From NCBI GenBank assembly GCA_020341815.1, contig CP070837.1, positions 1,044,575 through 1,108,574 of the forward strand: a DNA stretch of 64,000 nt, in the 5' to 3' direction. Origin of the DNA: Candidatus Omnitrophota bacterium (GTDB lineage: Bacteria; Omnitrophota; Gorgyraeia; JAFGHF01). Below, piece after piece: positions 10,132 to 63,865 of this stretch (positions within the stretch are counted from its first letter, which is position 1; every line of letters begins with the position of its first letter). The translations under genes and the position numbers were made by a program. The notes beneath the pieces were generated by a model. The model ran no database searches and was not told where the DNA came from. It saw nothing but the letters and a program-made list of their open reading frames with translations.

Positions 10132-12019
10132 TTATCATTTTCTCGTGTTGCGCCGACAGGCCTATTTCTGCATTAAGCACGCTATTAACTATACCCTCGG
10201 CGCTCAATCCATGCTTTTCCAGAAGAAATTCCCGTTTTGCGTGGGGAATAAAGACAGAAGGAAGAGCAATCCTTATTACGCGCACCTTTTCAAGGCCTTC
10301 TCTTTCCAGAAACTCCAACACCGCCGAGCCAAACCCGCCTTCTGCGACCCCTTCCTCTACCGTAACTATCGTCTCAACTTCAATGCAGAGCCTCTTGAAC
10401 AATAACCCATCAAGCGGTTTTACAAAACGGGCATTGATTACGGTGCAATCTATGCCCTGTGAGCTTAATATCCGCGCTGCCTCCAGGGCAGGATAAACCA
10501 TGCTCCCCAAGGCCACAATCGCCAGGTCTTTACCTCGTCTCAAAACTTCAGCCTTGCCGCATTGAATCTCGGAAGGCTTATAGTCTTCAGAAAACAATTC
10601 ACCTCTTTGAGGGACTTCTCCTTTTGGATATCTGATAGCTAAAGGCCTTGACTGGCCAGAGGCAAACTCCAGCATCTTCTCTAATTCTTCTCCGTCTTTA
10701 GGAGCCAAAAGCGTTAAATTGGGAATATGCCTGAGATATGCCACATCAAAAATACCCTGATGGGTAGCGCCGTCCTCTCCGACGATACCTGCGCGGTCAA
10801 GACATAAGACTACGGGTAAGCTCTGCAGACAGACATCGTGGATAAGCTGGTCGTAAGAACGCTGTAAAAAAGTAGAATAAATAGCCACAAAGGGCCTTAA
10901 GCCTCTCCGGGCTAGCCCGGCGGCAAAACCTACGGCGTGGGCCTCGGCCATTCCCACATCATAAAACCTTTTAGGAAAACTCTGAGCAAACTTATCTAAT
11001 CCCGTGCCTTCGGCCATAGCCGCAGTAATGCCTGCAATCTTTTCGTCCTTTTGGGCCAGAGAAATTAATTTTTCGCTGAAGACTTGAGTAAAAGTTTTAT
11101 TCGTAACTTTATTGTCTCCACCGTTGGCGCTTATCCCGTGAAATTTCTCGGGGATTCGCTCAGCCTGAGAATATCCTTTGCCTTTTACGGTAACCGCATG
11201 GATAAGCACCGGTTCTTTCAACTTAAGCACATTTCTTAAAGTGCGCACCACTTCTTTAACATTATGCCCGTCGATGGGGCCGAAATAACGAAAGCCCAAT
11301 TCTTCAAAGATTATTCCCGGCACTAAAAGATTTTTTAAGCTTTCCTCTAAGCGCTTAGCAGCAGAAAACAGTTTATTCCCCAGGCGGGGAACCCTCTTCA
11401 CCAGATTTTCTATATCCTGCCTTATGCGGTTGTATATCGGCATGGTAAGTATGCGGTTAAGATAGCGGCTGAGCGCCCCCACGCTTTTGGAAATAGCCAT
11501 CTTATTATCATTGAGCACGACTACCAAATCTTTATGCAGCTGTCCGGCATGATTAAGGGCCTCAAAGGCCATTCCTCCGCCTAAGGCGGCATCGCCGATT
11601 ACCGCTACAACCTTAGAGTTTTTCTCTGTATCGGCACAGGCAAGCCCCAGGGCCGTAGAAATAGAAGTGGAGCCATGGCCAGTCGTAAACGTATCATAGA
11701 CGCTCTCCTCTTTATTGGGAAAACCGCTTATCCCCTGCCACTGCCTGAGCGTCTTTAGTCTCTCTCTGCGCCCGGTTAAAATTTTATGGGCATAGGCCTG
11801 ATGCCCCACGTCCCAGACTATTTTGTCTTTCGGGGTATCAAGGCAATAGTGCAAGGCAATAGCCAGTTCCACCGCTCCCAGGCTGGACGCCAGATGCCCG
11901 CCGGTCACAGAGACGGTTGCGATAATCTCCCGGCGAATCTCCTGGGCAAGAAGTGAAAGCTCTTTTAGGGCGAGCTTTTTTAAATCAGCGGGATTACTGA
12001 TTTGTTCTAATAAGCTCAT
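10124..12019 (-). CDS. dxs: 1-deoxy-D-xylulose-5-phosphate synthase
   Basis: ELSLLAQEIR ... GGHLASSLGAVEL ... GDGA TPP motif. Transketolase-like layout of ~630 aa. Confidence 0.9.
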   Translation of the reverse strand: MSLLEQISNPADLKKLALKELSLLAQEIRREIIATVSVTGGHLASSLGAVELAIALHYCLDTPKDKIVWDVGHQAYAHKILTGRRERLKTLRQWQGISGFPNKEESVYDTFTTGHGSTSISTALGLACADTEKNSKVVAVIGDAALGGGMAFEALNHAGQLHKDLVVVLNDNKMAISKSVGALSRYLNRILTMPIYNRIRQDIENLVKRVPRLGNKLFSAAKRLEESLKNLLVPGIIFEELGFRYFGPIDGHNVKEVVRTLRNVLKLKEPVLIHAVTVKGKGYSQAERIPEKFHGISANGGDNKVTNKTFTQVFSEKLISLAQKDEKIAGITAAMAEGTGLDKFAQSFPKRFYDVGMAEAHAVGFAAGLARRGLRPFVAIYSTFLQRSYDQLIHDVCLQSLPVVLCLDRAGIVGEDGATHQGIFDVAYLRHIPNLTLLAPKDGEELEKMLEFASGQSRPLAIRYPKGEVPQRGELFSEDYKPSEIQCGKAEVLRRGKDLAIVALGSMVYPALEAARILSSQGIDCTVINARFVKPLDGLLFKRLCIEVETIVTVEEGVAEGGFGSAVLEFLEREGLEKVRVIRIALPSVFIPHAKREFLLEKHGLSAEGIVNSVLNAEIGLSAQHEKMING

Positions 12020-12249: not shown

Positions 12250-13472
12250 TGCCTATCATCTCCTTCGATTTTCTCTACCTTGCTGATAAATGAACCACAG
12301 GCTAACTTTGTCTCCAGTCTTTCCCCAATTTTTAGCGTCTTTACTTCTGTAACTGAATGCCTTTGAGGCAGCTTAAGTGTTATGCTGTAGCCGCGGGATA
12401 GAATATTTAGAGGGCTTAAGGCATGGAGCTTGCCGATTAAGACATTATATCTTTCCTGATAGATCTCGGCTAAGTGGGAGGCCTTAAGATCCAGAATTGA
12501 AACTAATTCATCTATGCGCAATTTGTATTGCCGGATTAAGTCGGTTGGTTCTTTAAAGACATACCGTCCTCGGAAAACCCTTAATTTTTCCTGAAGCAAT
12601 TCTATCTTGTTGCAAACGGCAATCTTTGCCCGGGAATAAAAATTATCTATCCTATCCAGAAGCTCCTGTTTGCGAGCAATAACCTGCTCGGCCGCCGCCG
12701 AGGGCGTGGGCGCACGCAGGTCAGCCACAAAATCCGATATAGTATAATCTATCTCATGCCCCACCGCGGAAATCACCGGTATCGCCGAACGAAATATCGC
12801 TCGAGCTACCGCCTCCTCATTAAACGCCCAGAGGTCTTCTAAGCTTCCGCCTCCGCGGGTAACAATCAAAACATCAACTGCGCCAAAACTGTTAAACTCA
12901 TCGATGGCCCGGGCAATCTCAAGCCCTGAGCCCTCTCCCTGCACTTTTACCGGATTTATAATTATGGAAAGATTGGCAAATCTTCTCCTTAAGACCTGCA
13001 GGATATCGCGAATAGCTGCGCCTCGAGGCGAGGTGACAATACCAATGCGCTGCGGAAGAAAAGGAAGAGGCTTTTTATGTTCTTCCTCAAAAAGGCCCTC
13101 GGCCAAAAGCCGCTCTTTAAGCTGCTGAAAGGCCAGCTGAAGCGCCCCCAGACCCTTTGGCTCGATAACGTCGGGATAAAACTGATATCTGCCGTCGCGC
13201 TCAAAGACCGAAATTCTTCCCCTGCACGTTACCTGCAGGCCGGTCTTTAGCTTAAACTTAAGAGCCTTTGCCATATTGGCAAAGATTACGCATTTTAATT
13301 GCGCCTTTTCGTCTTTAAGGGTAAAAAATACTGTCCCGGTGGAAATAGGGCTAACCCCGGAAATTTCGCCCTCTATCCAGACCTGCTGAAAGCCTTCCTC
13401 CAGCAATATCTTTACTCTGCGCGTCAACTCCGTAACTGTATAAATACGTCTTTTGGTATCTGCCTGCTTCAT
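12246..13472 (-). CDS. xseA: exodeoxyribonuclease VII large subunit
   Basis: N-terminal OB-fold region and overall XseA pattern (YTVTELTRRVKILLE ...). 4-nt overlap with xseB. Confidence 0.85.
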   Translation of the reverse strand: MKQADTKRRIYTVTELTRRVKILLEEGFQQVWIEGEISGVSPISTGTVFFTLKDEKAQLKCVIFANMAKALKFKLKTGLQVTCRGRISVFERDGRYQFYPDVIEPKGLGALQLAFQQLKERLLAEGLFEEEHKKPLPFLPQRIGIVTSPRGAAIRDILQVLRRRFANLSIIINPVKVQGEGSGLEIARAIDEFNSFGAVDVLIVTRGGGSLEDLWAFNEEAVARAIFRSAIPVISAVGHEIDYTISDFVADLRAPTPSAAAEQVIARKQELLDRIDNFYSRAKIAVCNKIELLQEKLRVFRGRYVFKEPTDLIRQYKLRIDELVSILDLKASHLAEIYQERYNVLIGKLHALSPLNILSRGYSITLKLPQRHSVTEVKTLKIGERLETKLACGSFISKVEKIEGDDRQ

Positions 13473-44979: not shown

Positions 44980-49387
<4,408 letters not shown>

Positions 49388-51825: not shown

Positions 51826-52011
51826 ATGAAAGGAATTCTCAAATTAAACAAACACAATAAAGATAAAGAAATAGACTTTGAATTAAATTATCTTAAGTCA
51901 TTATCCTTTCAGCAGAGGCTGCAAATGTGTTTGCAAAAGTCTAAAGAAATGAAGGAGCTTTTAAAGAAAAGTGGGCACAGAAAGACTTTTGAAATTATTA
52001 AAAGGACATAA
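51826..52011 (+). CDS. small ORF (61 aa), putative partner of the downstream nucleotidyltransferase
   Basis: AT-rich. Overlaps the NTase start by 41 nt in another frame. Weak similarity to the 57-aa ORF at 7436-7609 (shared ...D/N-YLK-x-h-x-F segment). Confidence 0.3.
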   Translation: MKGILKLNKHNKDKEIDFELNYLKSLSFQQRLQMCLQKSKEMKELLKKSGHRKTFEIIKRT

Positions 52012-52417
52012 GGTAGATTTCGTAATTATCGGCGCTACCGCCTTTCCTCTCTACGGCTATGCGCGTGCTACATTGGATATAGATATTTTTATTCGCCCCG
52101 AGGAAAATAATGCCAAAAAGACCTGGCGGGCTTTAAGGAAATTCGGGTATGATTTAAGCGATGTAACTATAGAAGATTTAATGAGTAAAAAATTATTAAT
52201 TCGTCAATACAACGTAGAAACAGACATTCACCCTTTTGTAAAAGGCATCACTTTTAAAAGGGTATGGAAGAACAAACTGCGGGCAAAATTTGGCCATACC
52301 TTTGTATATTTCGCTGCGCTTGAGGATTTGATCAAGATGAAGAAGGCTGCGGCGCGGCCTCAGGATTTAGAAGATCTTAAATATTTAAACAGATTAGCCA
52401 AAAAACATAAAAGCTAA
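51971..52417 (+). CDS. minimal nucleotidyltransferase-fold protein, paralogue of ORF 7620-8150
   Basis: VDFVIIGATAFPLYGYARATLDIDIFI NTase signature. AT-rich. Ends 1 nt before tRNA-Glu. Confidence 0.6.
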   Translation: MGTERLLKLLKGHKVDFVIIGATAFPLYGYARATLDIDIFIRPEENNAKKTWRALRKFGYDLSDVTIEDLMSKKLLIRQYNVETDIHPFVKGITFKRVWKNKLRAKFGHTFVYFAALEDLIKMKKAAARPQDLEDLKYLNRLAKKHKS

Positions 52418-52418
52418 C

Positions 52419-52496
52419 GACCCCATCGTCTAGCCCGGCCTAGGACAAGAGCTTTTCAAGCTCTCGACACCGGTTCGAATCCGGTTGGGGTCGCCA
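52419..52496 (+). tRNA. tRNA-Glu (anticodon TTC)
   Basis: Acceptor GACCCCA/TGGGGTC, D-arm GTCT-AGCCCGGCCTA-GGAC, anticodon stem AGAGC/GCTCT with loop TTTTCAA, T-arm ACCGG-TTCGAAT-CCGGT, discriminator G, CCA. Confidence 0.85.
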
Positions 52497-52545
52497 TCAA
52501 TTCGGACACTCTTGTAACTTAAACAGTTATAAGAGGTTAAATAAA
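52482..52545. repeat. left direct repeat (putative attL) spanning the tRNA-Glu 3' end plus 49 bp
   Basis: 64 bp. Matches 63801-63865 with ~5 mismatches and 1 indel: cggttg(c)gggtcgccatc[a/g]attc[g/a]gacactcttgtaactta..cagttataagaggttaaataaa. Confidence 0.7.
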
Positions 52546-52710
52546 GTAAGGGGAGTTGAAGTACTTCAAAAAAGGAGTATTTTGGCTTCCTTTTTTATTT
52601 TATCTCAAAAGCATAGTTCAATTTTTGAATTCAGCTTTAAGCAAAGCATAATTCAAAATTTGAACTCTCATATATTAAATAAATAGATACTTAAATAGAA
52701 GACTTAAACT

Positions 52711-53190
52711 ATGAGAACCATTTACCCATTTGGCTGGATAGACAGAGACCTTAAAGAATTAGGATTTTTAAAGGAAATGTCTCCTACAGCGGCAAAGCTT
52801 TATATTCTTTATATCCTGGCCGGTGGCGCAAATGGCAGAAGCTGTTACAGCGCTAAGGCCTTAAACGAAGCAACCGGCCTGGCAAACGCCACAATATGCA
52901 AAGCAAGACAGGAGCTTCAAGATATGGGTCTTATTGCAGTAGAGAAGGAAATGATACCGGGTCGCAAGAACAAGAAGCCAAAGATATGGGTAGAGCTCCA
53001 GGATCTTCCGGTTGACAGGATGGAGGTTAAACAACGCAGAAACACCGCCCATAAAGAACTTACCACTAAGAGAATCAGGAAAAGGAGATCGGAATTCATT
53101 GAACAGCCGAGACTTCTTTGTGAAAGGCCATATATGGCTCCAGATTGGCTGAAACAAGGTGTAAAACGAGCAAGGAGGCCTTATGTTTAG
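52711..53190 (+). CDS. winged-helix DNA-binding protein (regulator or replication-initiator-like)
   Basis: Predicted HTH around SAKALNEATGLANATICKARQELQDMGLI. Basic C-terminal tail. Preceded by paired inverted-repeat sites. Confidence 0.5.
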   Translation: MRTIYPFGWIDRDLKELGFLKEMSPTAAKLYILYILAGGANGRSCYSAKALNEATGLANATICKARQELQDMGLIAVEKEMIPGRKNKKPKIWVELQDLPVDRMEVKQRRNTAHKELTTKRIRKRRSEFIEQPRLLCERPYMAPDWLKQGVKRARRPYV

Positions 53191-53407
53191 CCTGCGCCGC
53201 TGGCTCAAATATACCCTAAATCCCCCAGAATATATTTGGATAAAGGCCATTTTGCTCAAAGAAACCCGCAAAGCCATCTTAATTGAGTTCGATGGCAAGC
53301 AAATCTGGCTCCCGAAGGTCTGGATTTTACGTATCAAACGAATTCAATGCAACCCTACCATAAGCATCAAAATATCCCAGTATCACTGGGCCAAGAAGCT
53401 CGGGTAA
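53183..53407 (+). CDS. hypothetical small protein (74 aa)
   Basis: Overlaps the previous gene by 8 nt. No recognised motif. Confidence 0.35.
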   Translation: MFSLRRWLKYTLNPPEYIWIKAILLKETRKAILIEFDGKQIWLPKVWILRIKRIQCNPTISIKISQYHWAKKLG

Positions 53408-53541
53408 TTTCTGTATTCAGCCTCGTTTTTTTCATGTATTCCCCTTTACAACCCTCTCAAAAGCATTTATAATAGTAAGCCAACTAGACGCTAAATGCTA
53501 GCAAAAGGGCTTATTTTACCGGTCCAAGAAGTATTTAATAC

Positions 53542-53571
53542 TTGAAAACAGAGCTTTTTCAGGAGTATAAT
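53542..53571 (+). promoter_or_regulatory. sigma70-type promoter for the methyltransferase operon, with a 15-bp palindrome over the -35 box
   Basis: TTGAAA (53542-47), 17-bp spacer, TATAAT (53566-71). Palindrome aagtatttaatactt at 53529-53543. Confidence 0.5.
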
Positions 53572-53610
53572 ATATAGCTGTCGAATGTCTATATAAAGCT
53601 GGAGAAATGT

Positions 53611-54669
53611 ATGCCTTGCAATTTTAGCGTTATTGATTTATTTTCTGGATGTGGCGGACTGTCGTACGGCTTTGTTAGGTCGGGGTATAATGTCTTGCTG
53701 GGTATAGATAATGATCCGGTAGCCCTCAAAACTTTCAAGCTCAACCATTCCGGATCGGATACTATAATAGCTGATATTGCAGGCATTTCCGGACAGGATA
53801 TCCTGAAAGCTGTGGGCAGAAGACAAATAGACGTTGTTATAGGCGGACCGCCATGTCAGGGATTTTCGCTTTCTGGCCCCAGAAAATTTAGTGATCCCAG
53901 AAACAAATTATACCTTTCTTTTATAAGGCTGGTTAAAGAACTGAAGCCTAGGGCATTTCTGATTGAGAATGTTCCCGGCATTATGAGTCTCTACAAAGGA
54001 CAGATAAAAGACGAAATTATTGGCAGATTTTCGAAAATGGGTTATAAAGTGAGTTGCAGTAAGCTGAATTCGGCAGACTACGGCGTTCCCCAACTGAGAA
54101 ACAGGGTTTTTTTTGTGGGAATATATAAGGCGAAAGAGTACTTTAAGTTCCCCCCTCCAGTGTTAAATAAAGAATGTTATATTGTTGCCGAAGAAGCCAT
54201 CGGCGATCTGCCAGGTTTGGAGGATCGTATCGGCACAGATCCAGCCCCTTATCCCGGAAACGGCGAACTCACGAGATATCAGAAATATATGAGGCAAGGT
54301 TCTCAGTATATACATAATCATATCGGAACGCGCCATGCCGAAATGACAAAGCGCGTTATATCTCTCGTTCCGGAAGGATGTAATTATAAAAGTCTGCCGC
54401 CGGAATATGCCAATACCAGAAATTTTCATGTTGCATGGACAAGGTTCCACAGCAAAAAGCCGGCACCGACCGTTGACACTGGCCATAGACACCACTTCCA
54501 TTATTTATATGACAGGGTTCCTACTGTCAGAGAATGCGCAAGGCTGCAATCTTTTCCGGACATTTTTATTTTCATCGGAAATAAATCACAACAATATTCC
54601 CAGGCAGGAAATGCAGTTCCTCCATTCACGGCACAAGCTATTGCGGAAGAAATGAGGCATTATTTATGA
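53611..54669 (+). CDS. DNA (cytosine-5)-methyltransferase, copy 1
   Basis: Motif I DLFSGCGGLSYGF, motif IV GGPPCQGFS, motif VI ENVPG, motif VIII QLRNRVFFVG, motif X GNAVPPF. Confidence 0.9.
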   Translation: MPCNFSVIDLFSGCGGLSYGFVRSGYNVLLGIDNDPVALKTFKLNHSGSDTIIADIAGISGQDILKAVGRRQIDVVIGGPPCQGFSLSGPRKFSDPRNKLYLSFIRLVKELKPRAFLIENVPGIMSLYKGQIKDEIIGRFSKMGYKVSCSKLNSADYGVPQLRNRVFFVGIYKAKEYFKFPPPVLNKECYIVAEEAIGDLPGLEDRIGTDPAPYPGNGELTRYQKYMRQGSQYIHNHIGTRHAEMTKRVISLVPEGCNYKSLPPEYANTRNFHVAWTRFHSKKPAPTVDTGHRHHFHYLYDRVPTVRECARLQSFPDIFIFIGNKSQQYSQAGNAVPPFTAQAIAEEMRHYL

Positions 54670-56081
54670 GATACCAGATACCAGAAGAATATTATTGTAG
54701 GTTGCACCACATACGTCCGAGGTTTAAAAATAATATAGAAAATGTTCTTATTTATATGGCTACCGAGATATCTAAAATTCGAAGAAAGAGCAAAAGAGAA
54801 TTCGATAAAGAAGTTAATAAAGCAATTAAAAAATTCCCAGGGAATGCAACGAAAAAGATTAAGACAATCAACAATTGGCGCACAGAAATCTCCTCTCTGT
54901 TTGGTTTTATCCGCACCAGCAGATCAAAAGATAAGTCGTGGCCAGCACTGAGGGCGACAGAGCTGGCGGATAAACAGGATTTGGTGCATTCGTTCAAGCT
55001 TTTTCTGTACCATTTTCAGTATCCCGGAGGACATCTCAAGCCTCACGAAAATGCTGAAGTTATCAGGCAAGGTATCAAATTCAGACCGGCACCTTTTATT
55101 TTGAAATTACTGCATAGCGCTGAAAAAAATGAAAAGACCAGGAAAGGTATCACCAAGCCCGAGCTGACCCACTGTGTTTTCAATGACCTGAGAGTCACGC
55201 GTGACGGGGAAGGTCCGGAATCCGTATGGGAGCGCATTAAAGAAAACAGGAAGAAAAAGGTTCAATATGACTGCAGGGGGGATGTTATACGTTATGCCGG
55301 AGATATTCTCGACTATATGGTAACGGCTAACTTACTTACTCCCCACGGGCAGAAATATTTTATAAATACCCTGGAGAAAAACGCGGTGCAGAAATTTATG
55401 GAGTCAAAAGATTGGTTTAGCAAGTATGACCGTTATATAGATAAAAGAAATGTTACCTTAGCGCAGATAAATAGTCTTCAGGAAGCATGGTTTGAATATG
55501 TAAATATGCCCAGGGAAGAGATATTCGAAACGGATGCTTTGGCTTTTATCGCCAGAGACGAGACAGAATATGCGAAGTTGCGAAAACAGATCGTAAGCAG
55601 TTTTATGGAAAAGCTCGAAGAGCCTAGTGAAATTGGCACGAAGGAAATAGGGGATGTGGGCGAAAATCTTGTGCACGGGCACGAATGTATGAGGATTAAA
55701 TTGCGCGAGCGTACAGACTTAATACATCTTATTCGGTGCATACCGGATCATCTCGCTGCCGGTTACGATATCAGATCTGTCGAGGCAGATGCTACATACA
55801 GATATATAGAGGTTAAAACTACCATAAGCAACAGCGAAATTGATTTTACCAGAATTCATCTGACGCCTGTGGAATGGACTGCGGCAGACACTCTTAAAAG
55901 CAGATACTTTGTCTACAGACTGCTCTTAAGCAAGAGGTCAAGAAAATTATTTCTGCTTCGCGATCCGGTGGGCCAGTACAAACAAGAAAAACTATCAATG
56001 ACGCCGCGCAACGGGGCAGATATTGTTTTCAGCCCTGCAAGATGCGGTGAATATACGGAGCTTCTGGAGTGGAGAGATTAA
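54666..56081 (+). CDS. protein with C-terminal DUF3883 (restriction-endonuclease-like fold) domain and uncharacterised N-terminal region
   Basis: C-terminal GENLVHGHE ... GYDIRSVEADATYRYIEVKTT ... IHLTPVEWTAA ... YFVYRLL matches the DUF3883 pattern. ATGA-coupled to the upstream MTase and overlaps the downstream MTase. Confidence 0.6.
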   Translation: MRYQIPEEYYCRLHHIRPRFKNNIENVLIYMATEISKIRRKSKREFDKEVNKAIKKFPGNATKKIKTINNWRTEISSLFGFIRTSRSKDKSWPALRATELADKQDLVHSFKLFLYHFQYPGGHLKPHENAEVIRQGIKFRPAPFILKLLHSAEKNEKTRKGITKPELTHCVFNDLRVTRDGEGPESVWERIKENRKKKVQYDCRGDVIRYAGDILDYMVTANLLTPHGQKYFINTLEKNAVQKFMESKDWFSKYDRYIDKRNVTLAQINSLQEAWFEYVNMPREEIFETDALAFIARDETEYAKLRKQIVSSFMEKLEEPSEIGTKEIGDVGENLVHGHECMRIKLRERTDLIHLIRCIPDHLAAGYDIRSVEADATYRYIEVKTTISNSEIDFTRIHLTPVEWTAADTLKSRYFVYRLLLSKRSRKLFLLRDPVGQYKQEKLSMTPRNGADIVFSPARCGEYTELLEWRD

Positions 56082-57484
56082 GAATAGCTTCGCTTTTCTG
56101 TGGTTGCGGCGGCACGGACGCGGGAATGCTCGGGGGGTTTACTTTCCTCGGCAGTAAATATGAAAAGCATCCTGTACAAATCGTTTACGCGAACGACATA
56201 GATGCCTCCGCAGCCAGAATATACGATGCAAATTTTAAACACAAATGCCTGGTGAAAGATATCCGGAAGATAAAAGCAGCAGAAATACCGGATCATGACA
56301 TATTGGCCGGCGGATTTCCCTGCCAGTCGTTTTCCATAGTTGCGCAGAATCCGCCTCGTCTGGGATATAGAGATGAAAACGGCCGGTTATTCTTTGAAAT
56401 GTGTAGGATTTTGCGTAATAAAAAACCGTTAGCCTTTGTTGCCGAAAACGTCAAAGGTATTTTATCGGCAAACAATAAACATGCTTTTCCTCTTATAATA
56501 AAAGAGTTTGAAAAATGTGGATACATAGTTTCCTGGTGTCTCCTGAACGCGGCTAATTATGGCATTCCGCAGCGAAGGGAACGTGTTTTTATTGTCGGAA
56601 TAAGAAAAAATATAGGCAGGAAGTTTTATCCTCCGGATTCTACCCACAGGCCGGAAAGCGATCTCTTGGCCGAAAGAAAATGGGTATCATTAAAAAGAGT
56701 TGTCTTTCCGCATGCCAAGGTGCCGAAGAAATATTTTTTTTCCGACAGGGCGCATAAGGGTCTTCATAATTCCAATCCCGCAATGAATAAAGGCCGGGCG
56801 CAGGATCCCGAGAAAGTTTGTAATACTGTGGGAGCGCACCTTGCTAAAGTCAGCCTTAACAGCACGGATCCCGTTTTAAAGATAAATGGTCGTTTCAGGC
56901 GCTTCGCGCCCAGAGAAGTGGCCAGAATTCAGTCTTTCCCTGATACTTTCAGGCTGCCGGGACCGGACACGGCTAAATACAAGGCTCTGGGGAACGCAAT
57001 TCCGCCGGTGTTGATGTGGCATATGACAGAAAGACTGCTCGAGATATTGGTTAAAGGTCCGGCCGAAGATGCAAGGACCGGCCGGGAAAAAAGAAGCTAT
57101 AATATGGCGCGAATTTGTTCAAAAAACACATTAATAGAACGTATTCTTGATGAAGCATTAAAGTCCTTAGGCTTGGAATATAAAAGAAATGTCAAAGGGC
57201 TTCCCGGAAAACCAGATATAGTTTTTGAGAAAAATCGTCTGGCGGTTTTCTGTGACAGCACGTTTTGGCACGGCAGACATTATCCCGAATGCGTAGAACG
57301 GATTAACACAAATAAAAGTTTCTGGAAAAACAAGATATTGAGAAACATGGAACGAGATAAAAAGACAACCAAAGAATTAAGATATCTAGGCTGGAAAGTG
57401 CTTCGTTTTTGGGATACCGATATAGAGAACAGAATGCAAGCCGTGATAGGAAAAATAGAAAAAATATTGGGTGCCCAGAAATGA
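56069..57484 (+). CDS. DNA (cytosine-5)-methyltransferase, copy 2, fused to a C-terminal Vsr-like very-short-patch-repair endonuclease domain
   Basis: MTase motifs FCGCGGTDAGM, GGFPCQSFS, ENVKG, QRRERVFIVG, GNAIPPV. C-terminal ~130 aa PDIVFEKNRLAVFCDSTFWHGRHYPE ... FW.NK ... RD ... LGWKVLRFWDTD matches the Vsr signature. Confidence 0.8.
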   Translation: MERLRIASLFCGCGGTDAGMLGGFTFLGSKYEKHPVQIVYANDIDASAARIYDANFKHKCLVKDIRKIKAAEIPDHDILAGGFPCQSFSIVAQNPPRLGYRDENGRLFFEMCRILRNKKPLAFVAENVKGILSANNKHAFPLIIKEFEKCGYIVSWCLLNAANYGIPQRRERVFIVGIRKNIGRKFYPPDSTHRPESDLLAERKWVSLKRVVFPHAKVPKKYFFSDRAHKGLHNSNPAMNKGRAQDPEKVCNTVGAHLAKVSLNSTDPVLKINGRFRRFAPREVARIQSFPDTFRLPGPDTAKYKALGNAIPPVLMWHMTERLLEILVKGPAEDARTGREKRSYNMARICSKNTLIERILDEALKSLGLEYKRNVKGLPGKPDIVFEKNRLAVFCDSTFWHGRHYPECVERINTNKSFWKNKILRNMERDKKTTKELRYLGWKVLRFWDTDIENRMQAVIGKIEKILGAQK

Positions 57485-57999
57485 TATATGAAAGCCGCAC
57501 ACTAGGAGAGTCGCCATTTGATTTTGATATTAGCTGGCCCTTTCCGGAAGGACAGAGAAAGTTGCTTGAAGCAGCCGTAACTAAAATAAAAATAGAATCA
57601 GCATCCCAAATTGATAAATTTGAAGAATCTTTCAATGAGGAGATTGCGCAGCATGGTTATATGTGGGACAAGAAAGATAAAAGCACATGTTCTCTCTGGC
57701 GGCCCGATTTCAGAATGTCTGTTGATTTCTATAACGCAAAGGAAAAAATTGCAGTTGAAATTGAAAAGACAGAGGTTAAAAGAATTATCCACGACGTATT
57801 AAAGCTAGTGAACGGCTCCTTAACCTTTGTGCCCAAAGTGAGATATGGAGTAATTATTCATCCGCACACATATAAACGCACATCAGGTAAAGAGAGTGTA
57901 TTTGCATCACGGGTTGTAAGCGAAGTTTCCTTCTATTTCAGGCGTTTGATCGGAAACACCTTATTAAATGATGTTCTTTTTATAGTTTATAATTTTTGA
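57481..57999 (+). CDS. hypothetical protein (172 aa), candidate PD-(D/E)xK nuclease
   Basis: Likely start MIYESRTLGE is ATGA-coupled to the MTase-Vsr stop. RPDFRMSVDF ... IAVEIEKTEVK is weakly PD-ExK-like. Confidence 0.4.
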   Translation: MIYESRTLGESPFDFDISWPFPEGQRKLLEAAVTKIKIESASQIDKFEESFNEEIAQHGYMWDKKDKSTCSLWRPDFRMSVDFYNAKEKIAVEIEKTEVKRIIHDVLKLVNGSLTFVPKVRYGVIIHPHTYKRTSGKESVFASRVVSEVSFYFRRLIGNTLLNDVLFIVYNF

Positions 58000-58148
58000 G
58001 CTGGTTTAAGGTTTTTCTTCGTCGGTAGAGTTTTCATGTTTCTTTGACTCGAATTCCCCGATAGAAAAGTGTTATGTTCCCAGAATTGCTGCACTTTATC
58101 TAGACGGCAAGAGGAAAACTTGGTTGTATAGGAATAAAGGCAAATATC

Positions 58149-58436
58149 TTGATTGGACGCGATTTTGGAATAACTTCTCGTTTTTTAATTAGAGGATTGA
58201 ATATAAAGAAGCTCCTGGCTCTGGCAATTCTAATCTGCCTAATATCCCTAACTGTTTTTGGCCAAGAAAAGAATTACCAAATGAAAACAGGCATATTAAA
58301 GACTTATGGAGAACCATTTTGGAAAGGCGAAGGCAAGCAGCGAGAAGTTTGGTATTACCCACGCCAAAGAATGTTTATTTATTTTGAAGGAGATAGAGCT
58401 ATTGAGATTGATGTAATTGCAGGGGAGAAGACATAA
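58149..58436 (+). CDS. small exported or lipoprotein-like hypothetical protein
   Basis: Hydrophobic N-terminus LLALAILICLISLTVFG. 95 aa. Confidence 0.4.
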   Translation: MIGRDFGITSRFLIRGLNIKKLLALAILICLISLTVFGQEKNYQMKTGILKTYGEPFWKGEGKQREVWYYPRQRMFIYFEGDRAIEIDVIAGEKT

Positions 58437-58439
58437 CGA

Positions 58440-59099
58440 ATGGAAATAATAAAACAAACATATTGTGCGGTTTTAAATAGCTTAAACCAAAATGCTAAAG
58501 ATAACTTTGATTATTTTTGTTCTGAAATTCAAAGAGTTGCAAACGAATATGGGATAGCGAATAAAGTCACTAAACTTGAACTTATCTGCAAAGGGAACCT
58601 TTATCGAAATATAGCAATAAGCTCCGGAAGAGTAAATATAAAAAATAATAATGATAAAACCTACAACTTCTGGGCTTCCTGTTCATTGTTTGTTACTAGG
58701 AAAGAAAGAATTACTGCAATAGTGCAACATGAATTGATGCATATTAAAGATATGGAGGATAAAGAATTTAAATTTGATAAAGAACTGTGGGACGGGTTGC
58801 TTGAAGACAAAATAATAGCCACATCGATTAGGCATATTTGGGACATCTATATAGATTCACGGATTGCGAGAACGAGTAAAATTGGTATTTCTAAACAAGA
58901 TAGGCTCGATGGGATCCTGCGTCTCGCTTTAAATAAGAATTTTCAATTAAGACATTGCATTTGGGAAATTGAAGATGATTTTGATTATCTTTGGAATATT
59001 GAGAAAATAGATTTTCCGACTATCATTGATAAAGCTAAAGAATTAAAAGAGAAAGTAGCGAATAAAGGTATGGCCCACCCGTCCGAAGAAACTTTATGA
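58440..59099 (+). CDS. HExxH-motif putative metallopeptidase
   Basis: HELMH motif (IVQHELMHIKD). 219 aa. AT-rich. Confidence 0.45.
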   Translation: MEIIKQTYCAVLNSLNQNAKDNFDYFCSEIQRVANEYGIANKVTKLELICKGNLYRNIAISSGRVNIKNNNDKTYNFWASCSLFVTRKERITAIVQHELMHIKDMEDKEFKFDKELWDGLLEDKIIATSIRHIWDIYIDSRIARTSKIGISKQDRLDGILRLALNKNFQLRHCIWEIEDDFDYLWNIEKIDFPTIIDKAKELKEKVANKGMAHPSEETL

Positions 59100-59328
59100 A
59101 ACTCAACGCTAAAGTAAAGATCTGGATGATCTTAGCCCCTTTGTGATAATGGCGACAATAGCCACAAAGGCTTTTTGCTATCCAGCAGAGGTTGAGGATA
59201 TGAGCGGAGAAAAATGCGTAGGATAATCTTTCGCCATAGTGGCCAAAAAATGCTATCCCTATGCAAAGGGGATAATGGATAAATAGCAGTTATTCTCATT
59301 TTTATAAAGTTTATGGAGTAAAAGGAAG

Positions 59329-59889
59329 ATGATTGACAGAAGTTTTGTTGATTATTGGAGCGAAAGATACGATAAGAATGCTCTGAAGAGAGATAAAAAG
59401 CTAGAGAAGAGAATTAGAGGAAAACTAAAGAAACTTTTTCCCGATGGGAAGGTAAAATACATTTTGAAAGACACGTTATTCGACATCGTTAACTGGAAAG
59501 CTCCGAGAAAGAAAAAATTAGCCAAAGATAATAAAAAAGAATATGTCTTTGAATTAACCAAGGCAAATTTTAAGGGGCATAGAGAACAGCTAAAGATAGA
59601 GGGACTAACATTACTGAAGGGTGTTGAGTATCGGGTTGCGAGTGCAATTCTTCATTTCTGTTTTCCCAAAAAATATACCGTAATGGACTATCGGACTTGG
59701 GAGTGTTTACAGAAAGAAAAAGAACTTCCTAAGGATTGCAACATTAAAGATGATTTTGAGCATTGGCAGAAATATTTAAAAATCTGTAGAAAAATAGCCA
59801 AAAGATGTAATGTCCCATTAAGAAAACTTGATAAGGCACTCTGGCAATACCATAAGGAATTGGAATGTAAAAAGAAGCTCAGGAAATGA
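59329..59889 (+). CDS. hypothetical protein (186 aa, Lys-rich)
   Basis: ORF with a plausible SD (aaaaggaag 8 nt before the ATG). No recognised domain. Confidence 0.4.
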   Translation: MIDRSFVDYWSERYDKNALKRDKKLEKRIRGKLKKLFPDGKVKYILKDTLFDIVNWKAPRKKKLAKDNKKEYVFELTKANFKGHREQLKIEGLTLLKGVEYRVASAILHFCFPKKYTVMDYRTWECLQKEKELPKDCNIKDDFEHWQKYLKICRKIAKRCNVPLRKLDKALWQYHKELECKKKLRK

Positions 59890-59963
59890 TAGCAGGGAGA
59901 AAAAATAAATCCGCCCCCCTGCTTTTTACTATTTCTATAACTTATTGAAGATAGTCCATACTA

Positions 59964-61130
59964 TCATTCTGGCCAAGCACTTAATTTCTGGTTGCCATGG
60001 AAAGAAAATAACTGAACATGACCACAATAGCCGCAGGTAAAGATTTTCATTGAATGAGTTCCAACGTATTTGAAGCCAAACTGCATCATGTCATTTGGGT
60101 CGCGATCAGCAATTAGTTTGTATTTACCAATCCCGCAAACTCTACATAATCGTTCAATATCGGGATCAAGCCGATCAGCACCCTCATCAATAATAGATAA
60201 GGTATTATCCACTTCTGCGAGAAGTTCGGAGGCATCCCTAAGGCAGTTTTTTTCATCTTCTACTATACATTTTTTAAGAAGTGAATTAGCCAATCGCATT
60301 AAACGACTGCTTGGGAACTTCTTTTCTAGATTAAAGTCCGGTCTATCAAAATACCAGAGAGGAAGAATAGGTGTGTCTGAAACCATTGCCCATAAGACCT
60401 TCCCCAAACAAAATACATCAAATGATGGTTTTACATCTTCTATCCGCATCCCTATTGCCCAACCGGGCATCCAATCCCGACTTCCTACATTCTCCCAGGT
60501 GCCAGAGATTCTGGTATGTCTTTGGTCTGTAAAGAATATCAGCCCAAAATCTCCAAGAATTAAATTATCGCTGGAATCAAGAAAAATATTTTGAGGCTTA
60601 ATATCTCTATGTACATTATTTTTTTCATGTAATTTGGCAATACCTTCCACAAGTGGCCTAAATGCTCTAAGGGCTTTAGCAAAATCACCGGTAAATTTAT
60701 TTAAATGTTTAGCCATCGTTTCTTTTGGGTAAAATTGAGACACAAACCATTTTGAATCTGGATCAGCATCTATAATTTTTAAAAGATTGGGATGTGAAAT
60801 GTTAGACATCGCTTTAATTTCACGCTCAATTCTTTTTTCGGCTAATCCGGCATTTCTTGCGTCTTGGGGACTATGCAATACTTTTAAAGCGCCGTGGTTT
60901 GAAGGATCTTCCATTTTAACAAGATGGACTATAGCATCCTTGAATAATTCAAATTGATTCTTCTTGATATCTTCTATTGCAACCACAGGCCCCATATATT
61001 TAACTGCTTTTTCAATGTTTGTCCGAATTTTGGTTATATTAAATTTATCGTTATCAATAACGCGATAAACCTTTCCTTGCCCGCCCTCTCCTTTATGCTC
61101 AATAATACGCCATCGGTTTGAATATTCCAT
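59964..61130 (-). CDS. eukaryotic-like Ser/Thr protein kinase with C-terminal zinc-ribbon
   Basis: Gly loop GEGGQGKVYRV, catalytic loop HRDIKPQNIFLD, DFG, C-terminal CRVCG ... CGYCGH. Confidence 0.85.
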   Translation of the reverse strand: MEYSNRWRIIEHKGEGGQGKVYRVIDNDKFNITKIRTNIEKAVKYMGPVVAIEDIKKNQFELFKDAIVHLVKMEDPSNHGALKVLHSPQDARNAGLAEKRIEREIKAMSNISHPNLLKIIDADPDSKWFVSQFYPKETMAKHLNKFTGDFAKALRAFRPLVEGIAKLHEKNNVHRDIKPQNIFLDSSDNLILGDFGLIFFTDQRHTRISGTWENVGSRDWMPGWAIGMRIEDVKPSFDVFCLGKVLWAMVSDTPILPLWYFDRPDFNLEKKFPSSRLMRLANSLLKKCIVEDEKNCLRDASELLAEVDNTLSIIDEGADRLDPDIERLCRVCGIGKYKLIADRDPNDMMQFGFKYVGTHSMKIFTCGYCGHVQLFSFHGNQKLSAWPE

Positions 61131-61282
61131 TTAAGACCTCCTGCTTTAGGTTTCTAGGCTTCTTCTGCCTTTCTTGAGGTTTGAGAAGCAGTTATTTTAC
61201 AACTTCCGTTACTAATTATAATCCTTAAAACAATGGATCTCAAGCAAAATCTGCCCAGAGAGAAAATTTTTTAAAATTTCTC

Positions 61283-61311
61283 TTGACAGATGCCCAAGCA
61301 TATGCTATTAT
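61283..61311 (+). promoter_or_regulatory. sigma70 promoter (TTGACA-17-TATTAT) with a palindromic operator in the spacer, driving a leaderless HTH gene
   Basis: -35 TTGACA at 61283-88, spacer gatgcccaagcatatgc, -10 TATTAT at 61306-11. The ATG at 61319 is ~7 nt downstream of the -10. The ORF-track start at 61283 is the TTG of the -35 box. Confidence 0.55.
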
Positions 61312-61318
61312 TAAAACG

Positions 61319-61498
61319 ATGACAGAAAAGGAGATTCTTGCAAAGATAGAAGATTACATGAGGAAGAATAATCTCCGGCAGTACGAATTGGCAAAAAAGT
61401 TAGGCGTTCCAGAGTCGACACTTAATAGGTGGCTTAAAGAGAAAACAAATATCTCAAATGCCTACCTGGCCATTTTAAAAAGAGAAGGGATTATTTAA
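61319..61498 (+). CDS. small HTH (XRE/cI-like) transcriptional regulator, probably leaderless
   Basis: HTH LRQYELAKKLGVPESTLNRWL. Start revised from the track's TTG to the ATG at 61319. Confidence 0.6.
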   Translation: MTEKEILAKIEDYMRKNNLRQYELAKKLGVPESTLNRWLKEKTNISNAYLAILKREGII

Positions 61499-61631
61499 AA
61501 AATTTTTAAGGAAAATATTAGCATATGCCAAAGCAAGCGTTAATAGAAAAGAGAGCAAAGCAAGGCAAAGAAATTTTTTTGCCCAATAAATTAGCATATG
61601 CCAAAGCAAATAAAGGAAAGGAGAGAGAGCT

Positions 61632-61838
61632 ATGTCAGAGCTGGCAAGGAAGATAGGGGATAATATCCGCCATTATCGCACGGAGAAGAAGCTGACGCAG
61701 GCGCAACTGGCCAAGAAGGCCAAGTTGAGCCGCGGTTATATCTGCAGAATTGAGCATGGCAGGGTTAATATGTATTTAACGACTCTTTTTGAACTTGCCA
61801 AGGTCCTTGGGGTTAGCTGCCGGGATCTGGTTAAATAA
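61632..61838 (+). CDS. XRE-family HTH transcriptional regulator
   Basis: LTQAQLAKKAKLSRGYICRIEHG HTH. Strong SD aggaaaggagag. Two copies of attagcatatgccaaagcaa upstream. Confidence 0.8.
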   Translation: MSELARKIGDNIRHYRTEKKLTQAQLAKKAKLSRGYICRIEHGRVNMYLTTLFELAKVLGVSCRDLVK

Positions 61839-61853
61839 AAAGGAGAGCCTGAT

Positions 61854-61988
61854 ATGGAGAGCAAAGAGAAGCCGGTCGCGGGAGAAAGGATTAATCAGTT
61901 TATTATCGAGTGCTTATTTAATAAGTACTTCGAGGAGCAGAAGGATAAAGAAGTAGTCGTCAAGAAGGAAGAAGTCGCAGCCCAATGA
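61854..61988 (+). CDS. 44-aa acidic small ORF translationally coupled to the serine recombinase (possible recombination directionality factor)
   Basis: Manually translated as MESKEKPVAGERINQFIIECLFNKYFEEQKDKEVVVKKEEVAAQ. SD aaaggagag. TGA overlaps the recombinase ATG (ATGA). Confidence 0.35.
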   Translation: MESKEKPVAGERINQFIIECLFNKYFEEQKDKEVVVKKEEVAAQ

Positions 61989-63622
61989 AACAGGCAATTG
62001 CCTATTTAAGAAAATCAACAGACTTACAAGAAGCCTCTTTGGAGCAGCAGAGGGAGAAAATCCTCCTGTTTGCAGAAGAGCATTCTATTAAAGTGATTGA
62101 GTTCTTTGCCGAGGAGGCCTGCGGCGAGAATGTCGAAGGCCGGCCGCAATTCCGCAGGATGATAGATTGCTGTAAAGGACAGGATAACTTTCAATACGTG
62201 TTTGTATATGATATCTCCCGATGGGGCAGATTTGAGAATCCGAAGGAAGCTGTATATTGGGAAGTAGAAATAGAGAAGGCAGGCAAAAAGCTTGTTTTTG
62301 TTTCGGAAGGTTTTAAGGAAGACAATATAGGCACCTCAATTACAAATTTTGTAAAGAGCGCAGAGGCCTCAGAATATCTAAAGAATATCCGGCGGCAGAC
62401 GACAAGGGGCATGATTTACAACGCAAAGCAGGGCTTTTGGATGGGCGGCAGGCCTCCTTATGGATATGACCGGGCTATTGTTGAAAACGGAAAGATAATC
62501 GGGGTTTTGCCGCAAGGGAAGCAGAAGGGCATAAAAGATCAGAAAATAAAGCTTGTTATAAATAAGCAGCAGGCCAAGGTGATAAGGATAATATATATCA
62601 TGTTTGCGAAGCAAGGCCTGTCGGTGCGCTCTATAGCTACTTACTTAAATCAAAGCCGATATTCTCCTCCAAGGGGCCGGATGTGGACAAAATCAGCCCT
62701 CTGGCGGATGTTACATAATGAGGTTTATATCGGGATGTTAGTGTATAACCGGGAAAATAAACACAAGAGGCACGGCAGACATAAATATAACCCTAAAGAC
62801 AAATGGATAATTGTAGAGAATGCCCACCAGCCGATAATTCCTCTGGAGCTTTGGGAAATGGCCCAGGCAAGGACAAATCAGGCCTTTGCAGGCGGAAGGT
62901 TTGTGTCCAGAGGAAACAGGCCGCGGAGCAATTATCTTTTATCAGGACTTATAAAATGCGGGAAATGCGGCTCTAACTTTCATGGCAGCCGCTATCATAG
63001 AAAACATTCCATAACCAGAGTATATTGCTGCGGCGGTTATAATATGTATGGTAACAATGTCTGCGCCAGATGGGAAGTGAATGCCGGTGAGCTCGAAGAC
63101 TTTGTCTTAAAATATATACAGGGCAAAATAGATAATCCTATATGGCGCAAGGAGTTAAGACAGGAACTCTTGAAGATGGTTAAAATTGCAGAAGGCAAAT
63201 CAGGCGGCAGGCTGCACGAGCTTGACAAAGAAATCAAAGAAGTGTCTCTAAAGATAGAGAACTGGAAAAGAGCCATTGAAAAAGGCGTAGAATTGGATAA
63301 TGCCGTCAGTATTATCAATAAATATGTATTTCAGAGGCAGCAATTATATCAGGAAAAGGGCAGGCTGTCGGCAAAAGTGCATAACGGCAGCGCCGATAAG
63401 GCCGTAGAGAAGATGCTGTCTTATCTGGACGACTTCAAAGACATATTGAGCTATGGCGAGCCGGAAAGGAAAAAGGACTTTATCAGGCTGTTTGTTAAGG
63501 GTGTTATGATGAATCCTGAGACGAGAGAAGCCAAAATAACCCTTTACAGGCGGCCGAAATCTGGTATAATATTAGGACCTGAAAAGTGCGAGTTGACAGA
63601 AGAAATAGTCTATCAGAATTGA
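61985..63622 (+). CDS. large serine recombinase (integrase)
   Basis: N-terminal resolvase catalytic domain AIAYLRKSTDLQ (Ser nucleophile). Recombinase domain. C-terminal zinc-ribbon CGKCG ... CCGG ... C and coiled coil. Confidence 0.85.
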   Translation: MKQAIAYLRKSTDLQEASLEQQREKILLFAEEHSIKVIEFFAEEACGENVEGRPQFRRMIDCCKGQDNFQYVFVYDISRWGRFENPKEAVYWEVEIEKAGKKLVFVSEGFKEDNIGTSITNFVKSAEASEYLKNIRRQTTRGMIYNAKQGFWMGGRPPYGYDRAIVENGKIIGVLPQGKQKGIKDQKIKLVINKQQAKVIRIIYIMFAKQGLSVRSIATYLNQSRYSPPRGRMWTKSALWRMLHNEVYIGMLVYNRENKHKRHGRHKYNPKDKWIIVENAHQPIIPLELWEMAQARTNQAFAGGRFVSRGNRPRSNYLLSGLIKCGKCGSNFHGSRYHRKHSITRVYCCGGYNMYGNNVCARWEVNAGELEDFVLKYIQGKIDNPIWRKELRQELLKMVKIAEGKSGGRLHELDKEIKEVSLKIENWKRAIEKGVELDNAVSIINKYVFQRQQLYQEKGRLSAKVHNGSADKAVEKMLSYLDDFKDILSYGEPERKKDFIRLFVKGVMMNPETREAKITLYRRPKSGIILGPEKCELTEEIVYQN

Positions 63623-63756
63623 AAGAGACCCCTTGGGGTCGCCAGATTATATACTTCTTTAGTTCCCAACCGGAACAAAAGAGGGGTTTGGGGAGAAAAA
63701 AGTGTTTTTTCTCCCCAAGGGCAACTTCTTCTTTGCGTAAGGAAAGAAAAATATTA

Positions 63757-63800: not shown

Positions 63801-63865
63801 CGGTTGCGGGTCGCCATCGATTCAGACACTCTTGTAACTTACGCAGTTATAAGAGGTTAAATAAA
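63801..63865. repeat. right direct repeat (putative attR) containing a degenerate tRNA-Glu 3'-end remnant
   Basis: Matches 52482-52545. The upstream gcgacccggttgcgggtcgcca looks like a deletion derivative of the tRNA T-arm/acceptor end. Confidence 0.7.

Follow-up and report, generated by a model that had tools for sequence, protein, structure and literature searches.

A stand-alone zinc-ribbon kinase and a serine-recombinase control region: two probably separate modules side by side in an Omnitrophota genomic island

Stk2 of Staphylococcus epidermidis is a single-protein abortive-infection Ser/Thr kinase, encoded within SCCmec, moved by large serine recombinases and placed in tandem with other defence cassettes (PMC11470126). 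Here we analysed a 64,000-nucleotide stretch of a Candidatus Omnitrophota genome (contig CP070837.1; this whole stretch is called the window below), which carries a mobile island with a solo Hanks-type Ser/Thr kinase gene. Divergently from the kinase runs the operon of a large serine recombinase, headed by a small helix-turn-helix (HTH) gene, HTH1. An earlier note on this DNA had likened the layout to a prophage immunity switch controlling an abortive-infection-type kinase; the sequence features listed in it are all there, at the positions given. Our comparisons suggest that two independent modules meet here: a recombinase backbone with its own switch, and the kinase as cargo. By description only, the kinase is like Stk2 in being a cytoplasmic Hanks kinase that stands alone, without a partner gene, carried by a serine-recombinase element, with restriction-modification genes beside it and in tandem arrays. 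It differs from Stk2 in having its own C-terminal Zn-ribbon and an N-lobe insert, and its island lies in tRNA-Glu, not in rlmH. A staphylococcal locus (L008) considered as Stk2 proved to be Stk1.

PD-T4-6, reportedly described by Vassallo et al. in 2022, is said to be a single-gene Ser/Thr-kinase defence from E. coli. It shares the one-gene layout with the window kinase, and the E values of its PADLOC profiles against that kinase range from 4e-27 (best 4.1e-27) to 1e-9. However, most of these profiles match only the kinase core (residues ~69-256), with scores equal to that of Pfam Pkinase, and the C-terminal domain is not common to both. PD-T4-6 profiles also pick up housekeeping PknB/PASTA kinases, whose phage phenotype was only mild (PMC11514479). 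The best PADLOC match of the window kinase was MAD6 of the methylation-associated defence system MADS (2.8e-29, residues 3-309), which spans the N-lobe insert and was also the best NCBIfam kinase match. However, NF047741 gave 80.2 bits versus a cut-off of 460, and the MAD6 profiles have 612-659 positions versus 388 amino acids (aa) in the window kinase. From the mad1-mad8 cluster, no other profile matched in the island except for a weak mad1 match of HTH1. The other scanned open reading frames (ORFs) of the island were restriction-modification genes or had no Pfam or PADLOC match. PknG-type kinases likewise combine a Hanks kinase with two CxxCG knuckles in an accessory metal-binding domain, but in the window kinase this domain is C-terminal, not N-terminal, and there is no TPR domain. 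Assignment to the Stk1/PknB PASTA kinases (NF033483) was rejected, with 63.4 bits versus 450, no PASTA domain and no hydrophobic segment.

On the recombinase side, the nearest counterparts are the islands of the staphylococcal cassette chromosome (SCC) type and other large-serine-recombinase islands, with which the window island shares the Resolvase, Recombinase and Zn_ribbon_recom domains, a variable, defence-rich cargo and an apparent tandem. It differs from them in having a tRNA-Glu 3′ end as target, mimicked by the element end, a single recombinase, an upstream control region of an HTH gene with three putative operators, and a Ca. Omnitrophota host. The control region resembles Cro/cI-type switches of phages and mobile elements that have leaderless repressor mRNAs, such as lambda cI expressed from P_RM or the ImmR-type control of the excision of integrative and conjugative elements, with a small HTH gene at the predicted transcription start, a putative operator in its own promoter, three related sites and a position upstream of recombination genes. 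In contrast to these switches, HTH1 has 59 aa without an oligomerisation or S24 domain, the divergent gene is unrelated cargo with no cro-like partner, two of the sites lie downstream of the regulator, and the element is not a phage.

The junction between kinase and recombinase operon comprises the following features:

59964-61130, minus strand: solo Hanks-type Ser/Thr kinase, 388 aa, island cargo (Pfam, catalytic residues, AlphaFold2)
61137-61142, minus strand: Shine-Dalgarno sequence AGGAGG of the kinase gene, 6 nt before the ATG (sequence reading)
61215-61243, minus strand: predicted kinase promoter P_kin, TTGAGA-17-TATAAT, 11/12 consensus positions (promoter scans; no homology there to the related elements L091-L093)
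61283-61311, plus strand: backbone promoter P1, TTGACA (61283-61288), 17-nt spacer, TATTAT (61306-61311) (promoter scans)
61290-61307, minus strand: O1, putative operator TAGCATATGCTTGGGCAT, in the P1 spacer and inverted relative to O2 and O3 (motif search)
61319-61498, plus strand: HTH1, 59-aa Cro/XRE-type HTH, first gene of the recombinase operon (Pfam HTH_3)
61519-61536, plus strand: O2, putative operator TAGCATATGCCAAAGCAA, preceded by an A/T tract (motif search)
61592-61609, plus strand: O3, putative operator TAGCATATGCCAAAGCAA, 73 bp past O2, preceded by an A/T tract (motif search)
61632-61838, plus strand: HTH2, 68-aa canonical XRE HTH, an extra gene (Pfam HTH_3)
61854-61988, plus strand: conserved 44-aa ORF with the motif ERINQFIIEC.F.KYFEE, its stop overlapping the recombinase start codon (homologue comparison)
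61985-63622, plus strand: large serine recombinase, 545 aa (Pfam Resolvase + Recombinase + Zn_ribbon_recom)

The recombinase backbone recurs without the kinase. All three domains of the recombinase scored above their cut-offs (Resolvase 72.0, Recombinase 91.5 and Zn_ribbon_recom 48.7 bits), placing it among the large serine recombinases. Homologues at 70-82% identity are common in metagenomes. In three related elements, L091, L092 and L093, the recombinase is 75-82% identical to that of the window, and each is preceded by a 59-aa HTH protein gene (63-86% identical to HTH1, start MT(E/D)(K/R)) and a small NQFIIEC ORF. The latter (44-62 aa, INQFI.EC.F.KYFEE invariant) stands directly upstream of the recombinase, at 9766-9936 in L091, 9800-9988 in L092 and 3615-3758 in L093; its product matched no known family and may be a recombination directionality or accessory factor. 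The homology to L091-L093 found by blastn covered 61262-61608, 61882-61970 and 61984-63645 of the window and nothing else nearby. The cargo is unrelated among the three elements and the kinase is in none of them. In L091 it comprises an AlwI-type restriction-modification system, a PLD nuclease, an S24 repressor and a DUF5677 gene, in L092 two large proteins of unknown function (578 and 1688 aa), and in L093 ParD/PemK and an NYN-domain protein.

The shared sequence ends between the two divergent promoters. By blastn it begins at ~61262, and in the multiple alignment ~25 bp upstream of the P1 -35 box, so P_kin (61243-61215) lies outside the conserved backbone. P_kin would give the kinase messenger RNA (mRNA) a leader of ~78 nt. 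Sites with at least 11/12 consensus positions are rare, only 8 in the window versus 1.4 expected from shuffles; they include P_kin, P1 and matches preceding dnaA, rnpA and the first methyltransferase gene. O1 is ~60 bp from the P_kin -35 box, with no overlap, and no TAGCAY-N8-GCAW site, the motif shared by O1-O3, was found in 61131-61260.

The kinase, in turn, recurs without an HTH gene. We compared kinase neighbourhoods at nine loci of exact proteins (seven distinct contexts) and at 80 metagenome loci retrieved with the family motif ENVGSRDWMP. Removal of near-identical copies left 74 groups including the window, with at least 800 bp upstream in 44 and downstream in 43 of them. An additional contig scan, which used the kinase alignment and the generic motif VHRDIKPxN, retrieved only unrelated kinases of up to 36% identity (L007-L086) and was of no use for context. 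The neighbours differed at each of the nine exact-protein loci, and included transposases, DprA, SRP/rimM genes, a reverse transcriptase and a HicB-like gene; no ORF or DNA was common to the flanks of the first seven loci. No neighbour protein family recurred in more than three of the 74 groups. Among 230 ORFs within 1.2 kb of the kinase in the 73 groups other than the window, no Pfam family was matched by more than one ORF, and no conserved HTH partner was found in these 73 distinct loci. Since neighbour families do not recur, the kinase family consists of self-contained single genes, of which an HTH regulator is no part. With the switch recurring beside other cargo and the kinase recurring without the HTH gene, their pairing in the window is a cargo/backbone junction, and the two independent modules probably meet at ~61250-61260.

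The kinase is, judged by its sequence, catalytically complete and cytoplasmic. It matched Pfam Pkinase (PF00069) with 96.9 bits (cut-off 31.7), placing it among the Hanks-type kinases, and has the motifs GEGGQG (residues 14-19), HRDIKPQN (174-181), DFG (194-196), CRVC (329-332) and CGYC (366-369); HRDIKPQN, DFG and the two CxxC motifs were already named in the earlier note. In an alignment of the window protein with 26 homologues (52-62% identity), G16/G17/Q18/G19, Lys83, Glu104, Asp176, Asn181 and Asp194 were invariant; thus the catalytic Lys, whose absence that note had given as an example of a refutation, is present. The four ribbon cysteines (C329/C332/C366/C369), which form two CxxCG pairs, were likewise invariant. 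AlphaFold2 gave confident models, with predicted local distance difference test scores of 82 for the full kinase and 88 for the C-terminal domain. The core is that of a normal kinase, in which a ~55-aa two-helix insert separates G-loop/beta2 from beta3 and the activation loop is disordered; behind it come a helical linker and a three-stranded Zn ribbon with four cysteines (2x CxxCG). Pfam and sequence inspection revealed no transmembrane or hydrophobic segment, sensor domain or PASTA domains, and no phosphatase partner was seen.

Other features of the family are atypical. The APE motif, otherwise usual in Hanks kinases, is replaced by a conserved PxW (MPGWA here, residues 220-225). Two further invariant cysteines, C288 and C296 (KCIVE..E..C), lie outside the ribbon in the helical linker, and the C-terminal Trp W386 is invariant as well.

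The kinase family is large and its C-terminal domain appears nowhere else. The first kinase search gave 843 proteins at E<=1e-5, the best 120 of which shared 52-64% identity with the query, most having a length of 380-410 aa; NC10, KSB1, Planctomycetota and Omnitrophota were named among the sources. The C-terminal 134 residues matched 502 cluster representatives in a search of 1.84 billion proteins. Among the 150 of these 502 matches listed, the domain was always C-terminal and mostly in kinases of ~390 aa, the other hosts being fragments and proteins with N-terminal extensions. In ten longer family members (500-620 aa) the N-terminal extensions had no Pfam domain. Going by these matches, the domain is private to the kinase family. 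Searches of the PDB (by sequence) and with Foldseek retrieved only generic kinases for the full protein (PknB/Stk1, Aurora). For the C-terminal domain model Foldseek gave nothing significant, with a best E value of 0.44, and the top non-significant matches were generic zinc ribbons (Rpp21, ribosomal L44e and ZPR1). Viral collections held no relative of the kinase or the recombinase, and BLAST collections of phages and plasmids gave only distant matches to the kinase core, with at most 32% identity. No description of this kinase family was found in the literature.

With its own strong sigma70-type promoter and Shine-Dalgarno sequence, the kinase would be expressed away from the backbone and need no partner gene. 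With a promoter of this strength, the kinase would have to be controlled post-translationally. If Stk2 is taken as the model, the private Zn-ribbon domain would control or target the kinase and keep it inactive until a trigger appears. The most likely role would be a single-gene defence, by phosphorylation, against phages or other mobile genetic elements, suggested by the Stk2 analogy together with the restriction-modification, toxin-antitoxin and nuclease cargo of the sister islands. As it builds on association, we regard the assignment as an anti-phage defence gene as tentative, somewhat short of an even chance.

The neighbourhoods bear on this assignment from both sides. The kinase is patchy across phyla at 52-62% identity, in a context that is different at every locus, and many of its neighbours are toxin-antitoxin, restriction-modification, reverse-transcriptase or transposase genes. 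Among the neighbours were HsdM, ParE, HicAB, PIN, Phd, RVT_1, AAA_15, AAA_21, DUF4238, DUF5677, transposases and an integrase. Ordinary housekeeping genes were also common beside the homologues. That many loci lie among such genes counts against defence, as do the PADLOC scores for PD-T4-6 and mad6, which do not exceed that of generic Pkinase. The kinase could instead be a selfish or accessory signalling gene or a toxin-like gene, for example a modulator of host physiology, an addiction module whose antidote is not apparent, or a regulatory kinase of the ordinary kind, spread by horizontal transfer. Several homologues among housekeeping genes without mobile or defence neighbours (L005, L087) would fit such a gene, and no validated defence-kinase profile matched above its curated cut-off; moreover, as said above, PD-T4-6 profiles flag PknB-type housekeeping kinases too. 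However, the patchy distribution, the defence-type neighbours and the place of the kinase as cargo of an island whose relatives bear restriction-modification, PLD nuclease and toxin-antitoxin genes argue against it, and the phosphatase partner, sensor or transmembrane domain typical of signalling kinases is missing. We consider a non-defensive kinase rather unlikely.

The switch itself is compact. P1 matches the consensus at 11/12 positions and has a TG extension, and its spacer holds AGCATATGCT. Only 7 nt (taaaacg) separate its -10 box from the HTH1 ATG at 61319, as the earlier note had also seen. This start (59 aa) is the one given by the homologues; the TTG at 61283 of the mechanical ORF list is the -35 box itself. 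No Shine-Dalgarno sequence was read upstream of HTH1, unlike the genes of the kinase, HTH2 and the small ORF, which are preceded by GGAGG-type sites. The arrangement TTGACA-17-TAnnnT-7 nt-ATG is kept in the window, L091, L092 and L093 (4/4), none of which has a Shine-Dalgarno sequence, while the surrounding bases vary. This conserved spacing in four loci is the best support, short of transcript mapping, for a leaderless HTH1 mRNA. The mRNA is probably leaderless or has a 1-nt leader. HTH1 matched Pfam HTH_3 (PF01381) with 35.7 bits (cut-off 23), which makes it a member of the XRE/Cro-C1 type. A lambda cI-type repressor, the "cI-like" protein of the earlier note, was rejected, since HTH1 is a single 59-aa domain without a C-terminal dimerisation/oligomerisation or S24 peptidase domain.

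Three copies of one motif surround HTH1. Two of them, O2 and O3, lie between HTH1 and HTH2 and are the further repeats that had been noticed before the second XRE gene. The sequence attagcatatgccaaagcaa occurs at 61517-61536 and 61590-61609, and the three exact copies of AGCATATGC in the window all fall inside 61297-61601. The wider pattern TAGCAY-N8-GCAW occurs exactly three times in the window, where 0.51 occurrences were expected. L091, L092 and L093 have exactly three copies each as well, in the same (-,+,+) order. In all four, the minus-strand copy is in the promoter spacer, and the two plus-strand copies follow the HTH gene and precede the next one. The other ~210 loci compared gave no more than five stray matches in total. 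In L092 the variant GCATGTGC is present in O1 as well as in O3.

HTH1 would bind these sites, as suggested by their position and conservation. On O1, within the spacer of its own promoter, it would exclude RNA polymerase, resulting in negative autoregulation, and on O2 and O3, downstream of its gene, it could act as a roadblock or through looping partners. Between HTH1 and the recombinase there is no plus-strand sigma70-like promoter with at least 9/12 positions, and no convincing terminator between HTH1 and HTH2; hence P1, HTH1, HTH2, the 44-aa ORF and the recombinase probably form one operon. Repression by HTH1 would keep recombinase expression low and the island stably integrated. The HTH switch thus likely serves integration/excision control of the island and not control of the kinase. 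A point against this is that DNA binding by HTH1, the start of transcription and the activity of the recombinase are deductions from the DNA. The role of O2 and O3 as operators is also uncertain, since they resemble the upstream half of P1, with an A/T tract and the -35-like hexamer TTAGCA, and a weak minus-strand promoter match (TTGGCA-18-AAAAAT, 9/12) overlaps O2.

Instead of operators, O2 and O3 could be degenerate copies of the P1 upstream half that serve the recombinase as weak promoters or UP-like elements. They could also be antisense promoters against HTH1, or accessory sites used by the recombinase or by the product of the small ORF. When P1, O2 and O3 are aligned in direct register, all three indeed show the A/T tract, a hexamer (TTGACA or TTAGCA) and ATGCC.AAGCA, and the minus-strand match at O2 would suit an antisense promoter. 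However, no acceptable -10 box follows TTAGCA after 16-18 nt in any of the four loci, and no second convincing sigma70 promoter was found at O2/O3 in the sequences of the window and L091-L093. The 18-bp motif also lies within the spacer of a strong promoter, a classic repressor position, and the GCATGTGC variant co-occurs in O1 and O3 of L092. A non-operator role of O2 and O3 is therefore, in our judgement, quite unlikely.

HTH2 would be an optional second regulator of the recombinase module. It matched Pfam HTH_3 with 47.8 bits (cut-off 23) and is missing from L091-L093. In the window it appears to have been inserted, together with a ribosome-binding site, after O3 and before the small ORF. 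The nearest relatives of HTH2 are a copy with 88% identity on another part of the contig of the same metagenome-assembled genome (MAG) and a 78% homologue in L214. In L214, the homologue has another small HTH gene on one side and, on the other, an Xis-like HTH_17 gene and then a tyrosine integrase; because of this place in an integrase module, HTH2 belongs to the regulators of integration modules. Its PADLOC match to Control_protein (2.3e-11) raised the C protein of a restriction-modification system as a candidate, which was rejected: the endonuclease gene is 5.5 kb away, HTH2 sits within the recombinase operon, and its homologue is in an integrase module.

Two points weigh in favour of some link across the junction. 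P1 and P_kin are divergent, with -35 boxes 39 bp apart, and could affect each other via supercoiling or RNA polymerase crowding. A local HTH2-kinase link is also conceivable, both being present only in this island among the four compared (n = 1). Still, that HTH1 and/or HTH2 form an immunity-type switch with the divergent kinase as main output, repressed until a phage signal, is very improbable, as these back-to-back promoters, the shared uniqueness of HTH2 and kinase and the weak PADLOC matches of HTH1 to mad1 and of the kinase to mad6, both of MADS, are opposed by a switch kept in L091-L093 without any kinase, by kinase relatives without HTH neighbours in 73 other loci, by an O1 clear of P_kin and a P_kin outside the backbone homology, by the integrase-module homologue of HTH2, and by a MAD6 score of 80 bits versus 460 with the other MADS genes not present. 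From the repressor-type switch of the earlier note, a probably leaderless HTH gene with repeated candidate operators, kept in three related elements, remains; control of the kinase does not. Nor is a prophage supported, as the region has no phage structural genes and no relatives were found in viral collections, while its nature as a mobile island is borne out.

The ends of the island and its nearest cargo are:

52419-52545, plus strand: tRNA-Glu (52419-52496) and island left end from 52497, TCAATTCGGACACTC...; putative attachment site attL (sequence comparison)
53611-57484, plus strand: adjacent cargo, C5-methyltransferase, BpuJI-type restriction endonuclease and C5-methyltransferase-Vsr fusion (profile matches)
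63629-63644, plus strand: island right end CCCCTTGGGGTCGCCA, which mimics the tRNA-Glu 3′ end; putative attR half (sequence comparison)
63808-63865, plus strand: 93% copy (58 bp) of the tRNA 3′ end and island left end (sequence comparison)

The tRNA-Glu 3′ end, CCGGTTGGGGTCGCCA (52481-52496), is resembled by CCCCTTGGGGTCGCCA directly past the recombinase stop, and the backbone homology to L091-L093 stops at 63645. These three elements also have a tRNA-like end after the recombinase, and the L092 version, GGGGACGCCA, matches the tRNA-Glu of that genome. In the simplest reading, the island appears to be an element of ~11.1 kb (52497-63644) integrated at the tRNA-Glu 3′ end. The post-tRNA sequence TCAATTCGGACACTC recurs at 63808-63865, behind a degenerate tRNA 3′ remnant 165 bp past the island. 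A left end of the TCAATTCGGACACTC type recurs also in L092, behind a partial tRNA-Glu copy (L092 1458-1533 and 3789-3865). A second, related element thus probably starts in tandem at ~63818. The MAG contig encodes a second recombinase (78% identity) and a second HTH2 (88% identity), which we infer to be part of the tandem element. A point against this reading of the ends is the 58-bp direct repeat flanking the island, which is unusual for a serine recombinase.

In L091, the right-end sequence of ~40 bp (11628-11660) is duplicated 1.3 kb downstream (12981-13022). Between the two copies lies an AAA_14/DUF4143 ATPase gene, which gives the impression of a one-gene cassette gained at the attachment site. 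Short hairpin-forming repeats, GAGATTGCTTCG...CGCAATGAC, are dispersed intergenically in L092 (9960-9990) and L093 (3500-3545 and 3760-3800), like small elements of the miniature inverted-repeat transposable or repetitive extragenic palindromic type.

The window covers the replication-origin region, with rnpA, dnaA, dnaN, an intein-containing gyrB and gyrA, and the cumulative GC-skew minimum at ~43-44 kb. The island lies within ~10 kb of dnaA/gyrA. From tRNA-Glu to ~63.6 kb the GC content falls to 0.34-0.46, and the genes there are typical island cargo. Their order is C5-methyltransferase, BpuJI-type endonuclease, C5-methyltransferase-Vsr fusion, several ORFs without a family match, kinase, HTH1, HTH2, 44-aa ORF and large serine recombinase. 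There were no phage structural genes in the island, and an Rfam scan of it detected only tRNA.

Among the cargo, the BpuJI-type endonuclease (N-terminal domain, E = 1.6e-100) sits between the two C5-cytosine methyltransferases, the second of which also carries, as fusion partners, a Vsr mismatch endonuclease and a DUF559-like domain. Two 11/12 promoter matches lie upstream of these genes, at 53445 and 53542. The first island ORF (52711-53190, 159 aa) gave weak PHROGs matches (E 6e-6 to 4e-4) to the N-terminal winged-helix domains of phage replication initiators, O-like and DnaD-like proteins. A 186-aa ORF (59329-59889), convergent with the kinase, matched phrog_24538 (function unknown, E = 4.6e-12); it was not found beside the kinase homologues in the first seven loci compared directly. 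The 74-bp gap between the stop codons of this ORF and the kinase holds a GC-rich hairpin with a T-run. Outside the island, gyrB (45281-49387) is a 1368-aa ORF with an intein bearing a LAGLIDADG homing-endonuclease domain, and in the related genome of L092 (1-1449) the intein is in gyrA instead. Between gyrA and the island, a DUF6036/DUF2204 nucleotidyltransferase gene (51971-52417) stops 1 nt short of tRNA-Glu. L092 has no such gene at the equivalent place.

Each part of this locus is a variant of something known, and neither module overturns current understanding. Divergently oriented neighbours on an island need not form a single system, which corrects a tempting annotation. Both modules come from a little-studied phylum. 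The compact recombinase control region, with its probably leaderless HTH gene, three sites and likely att sequences, might serve as an integration tool. At its boldest, and still speculative, our reading is that the ~390-aa Zn-ribbon kinases (at least 500 clusters at 50% identity, in Omnitrophota, NC10, KSB1, Planctomycetota and other uncultured lineages) could be an unrecognised, widespread single-gene anti-phage system, whose C-terminal domain would sense a phage component and release the constitutively expressed kinase onto host or phage targets. To this would be added an Omnitrophota family of origin-adjacent serine-recombinase defence islands in tRNA-Glu, with a switch of a leaderless HTH gene and three operators. 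The stand-alone kinases with their private Zn-ribbon are in any case a large, uncharacterised family and, if defensive, would form a distinct branch of the few known kinase-based immunity genes.

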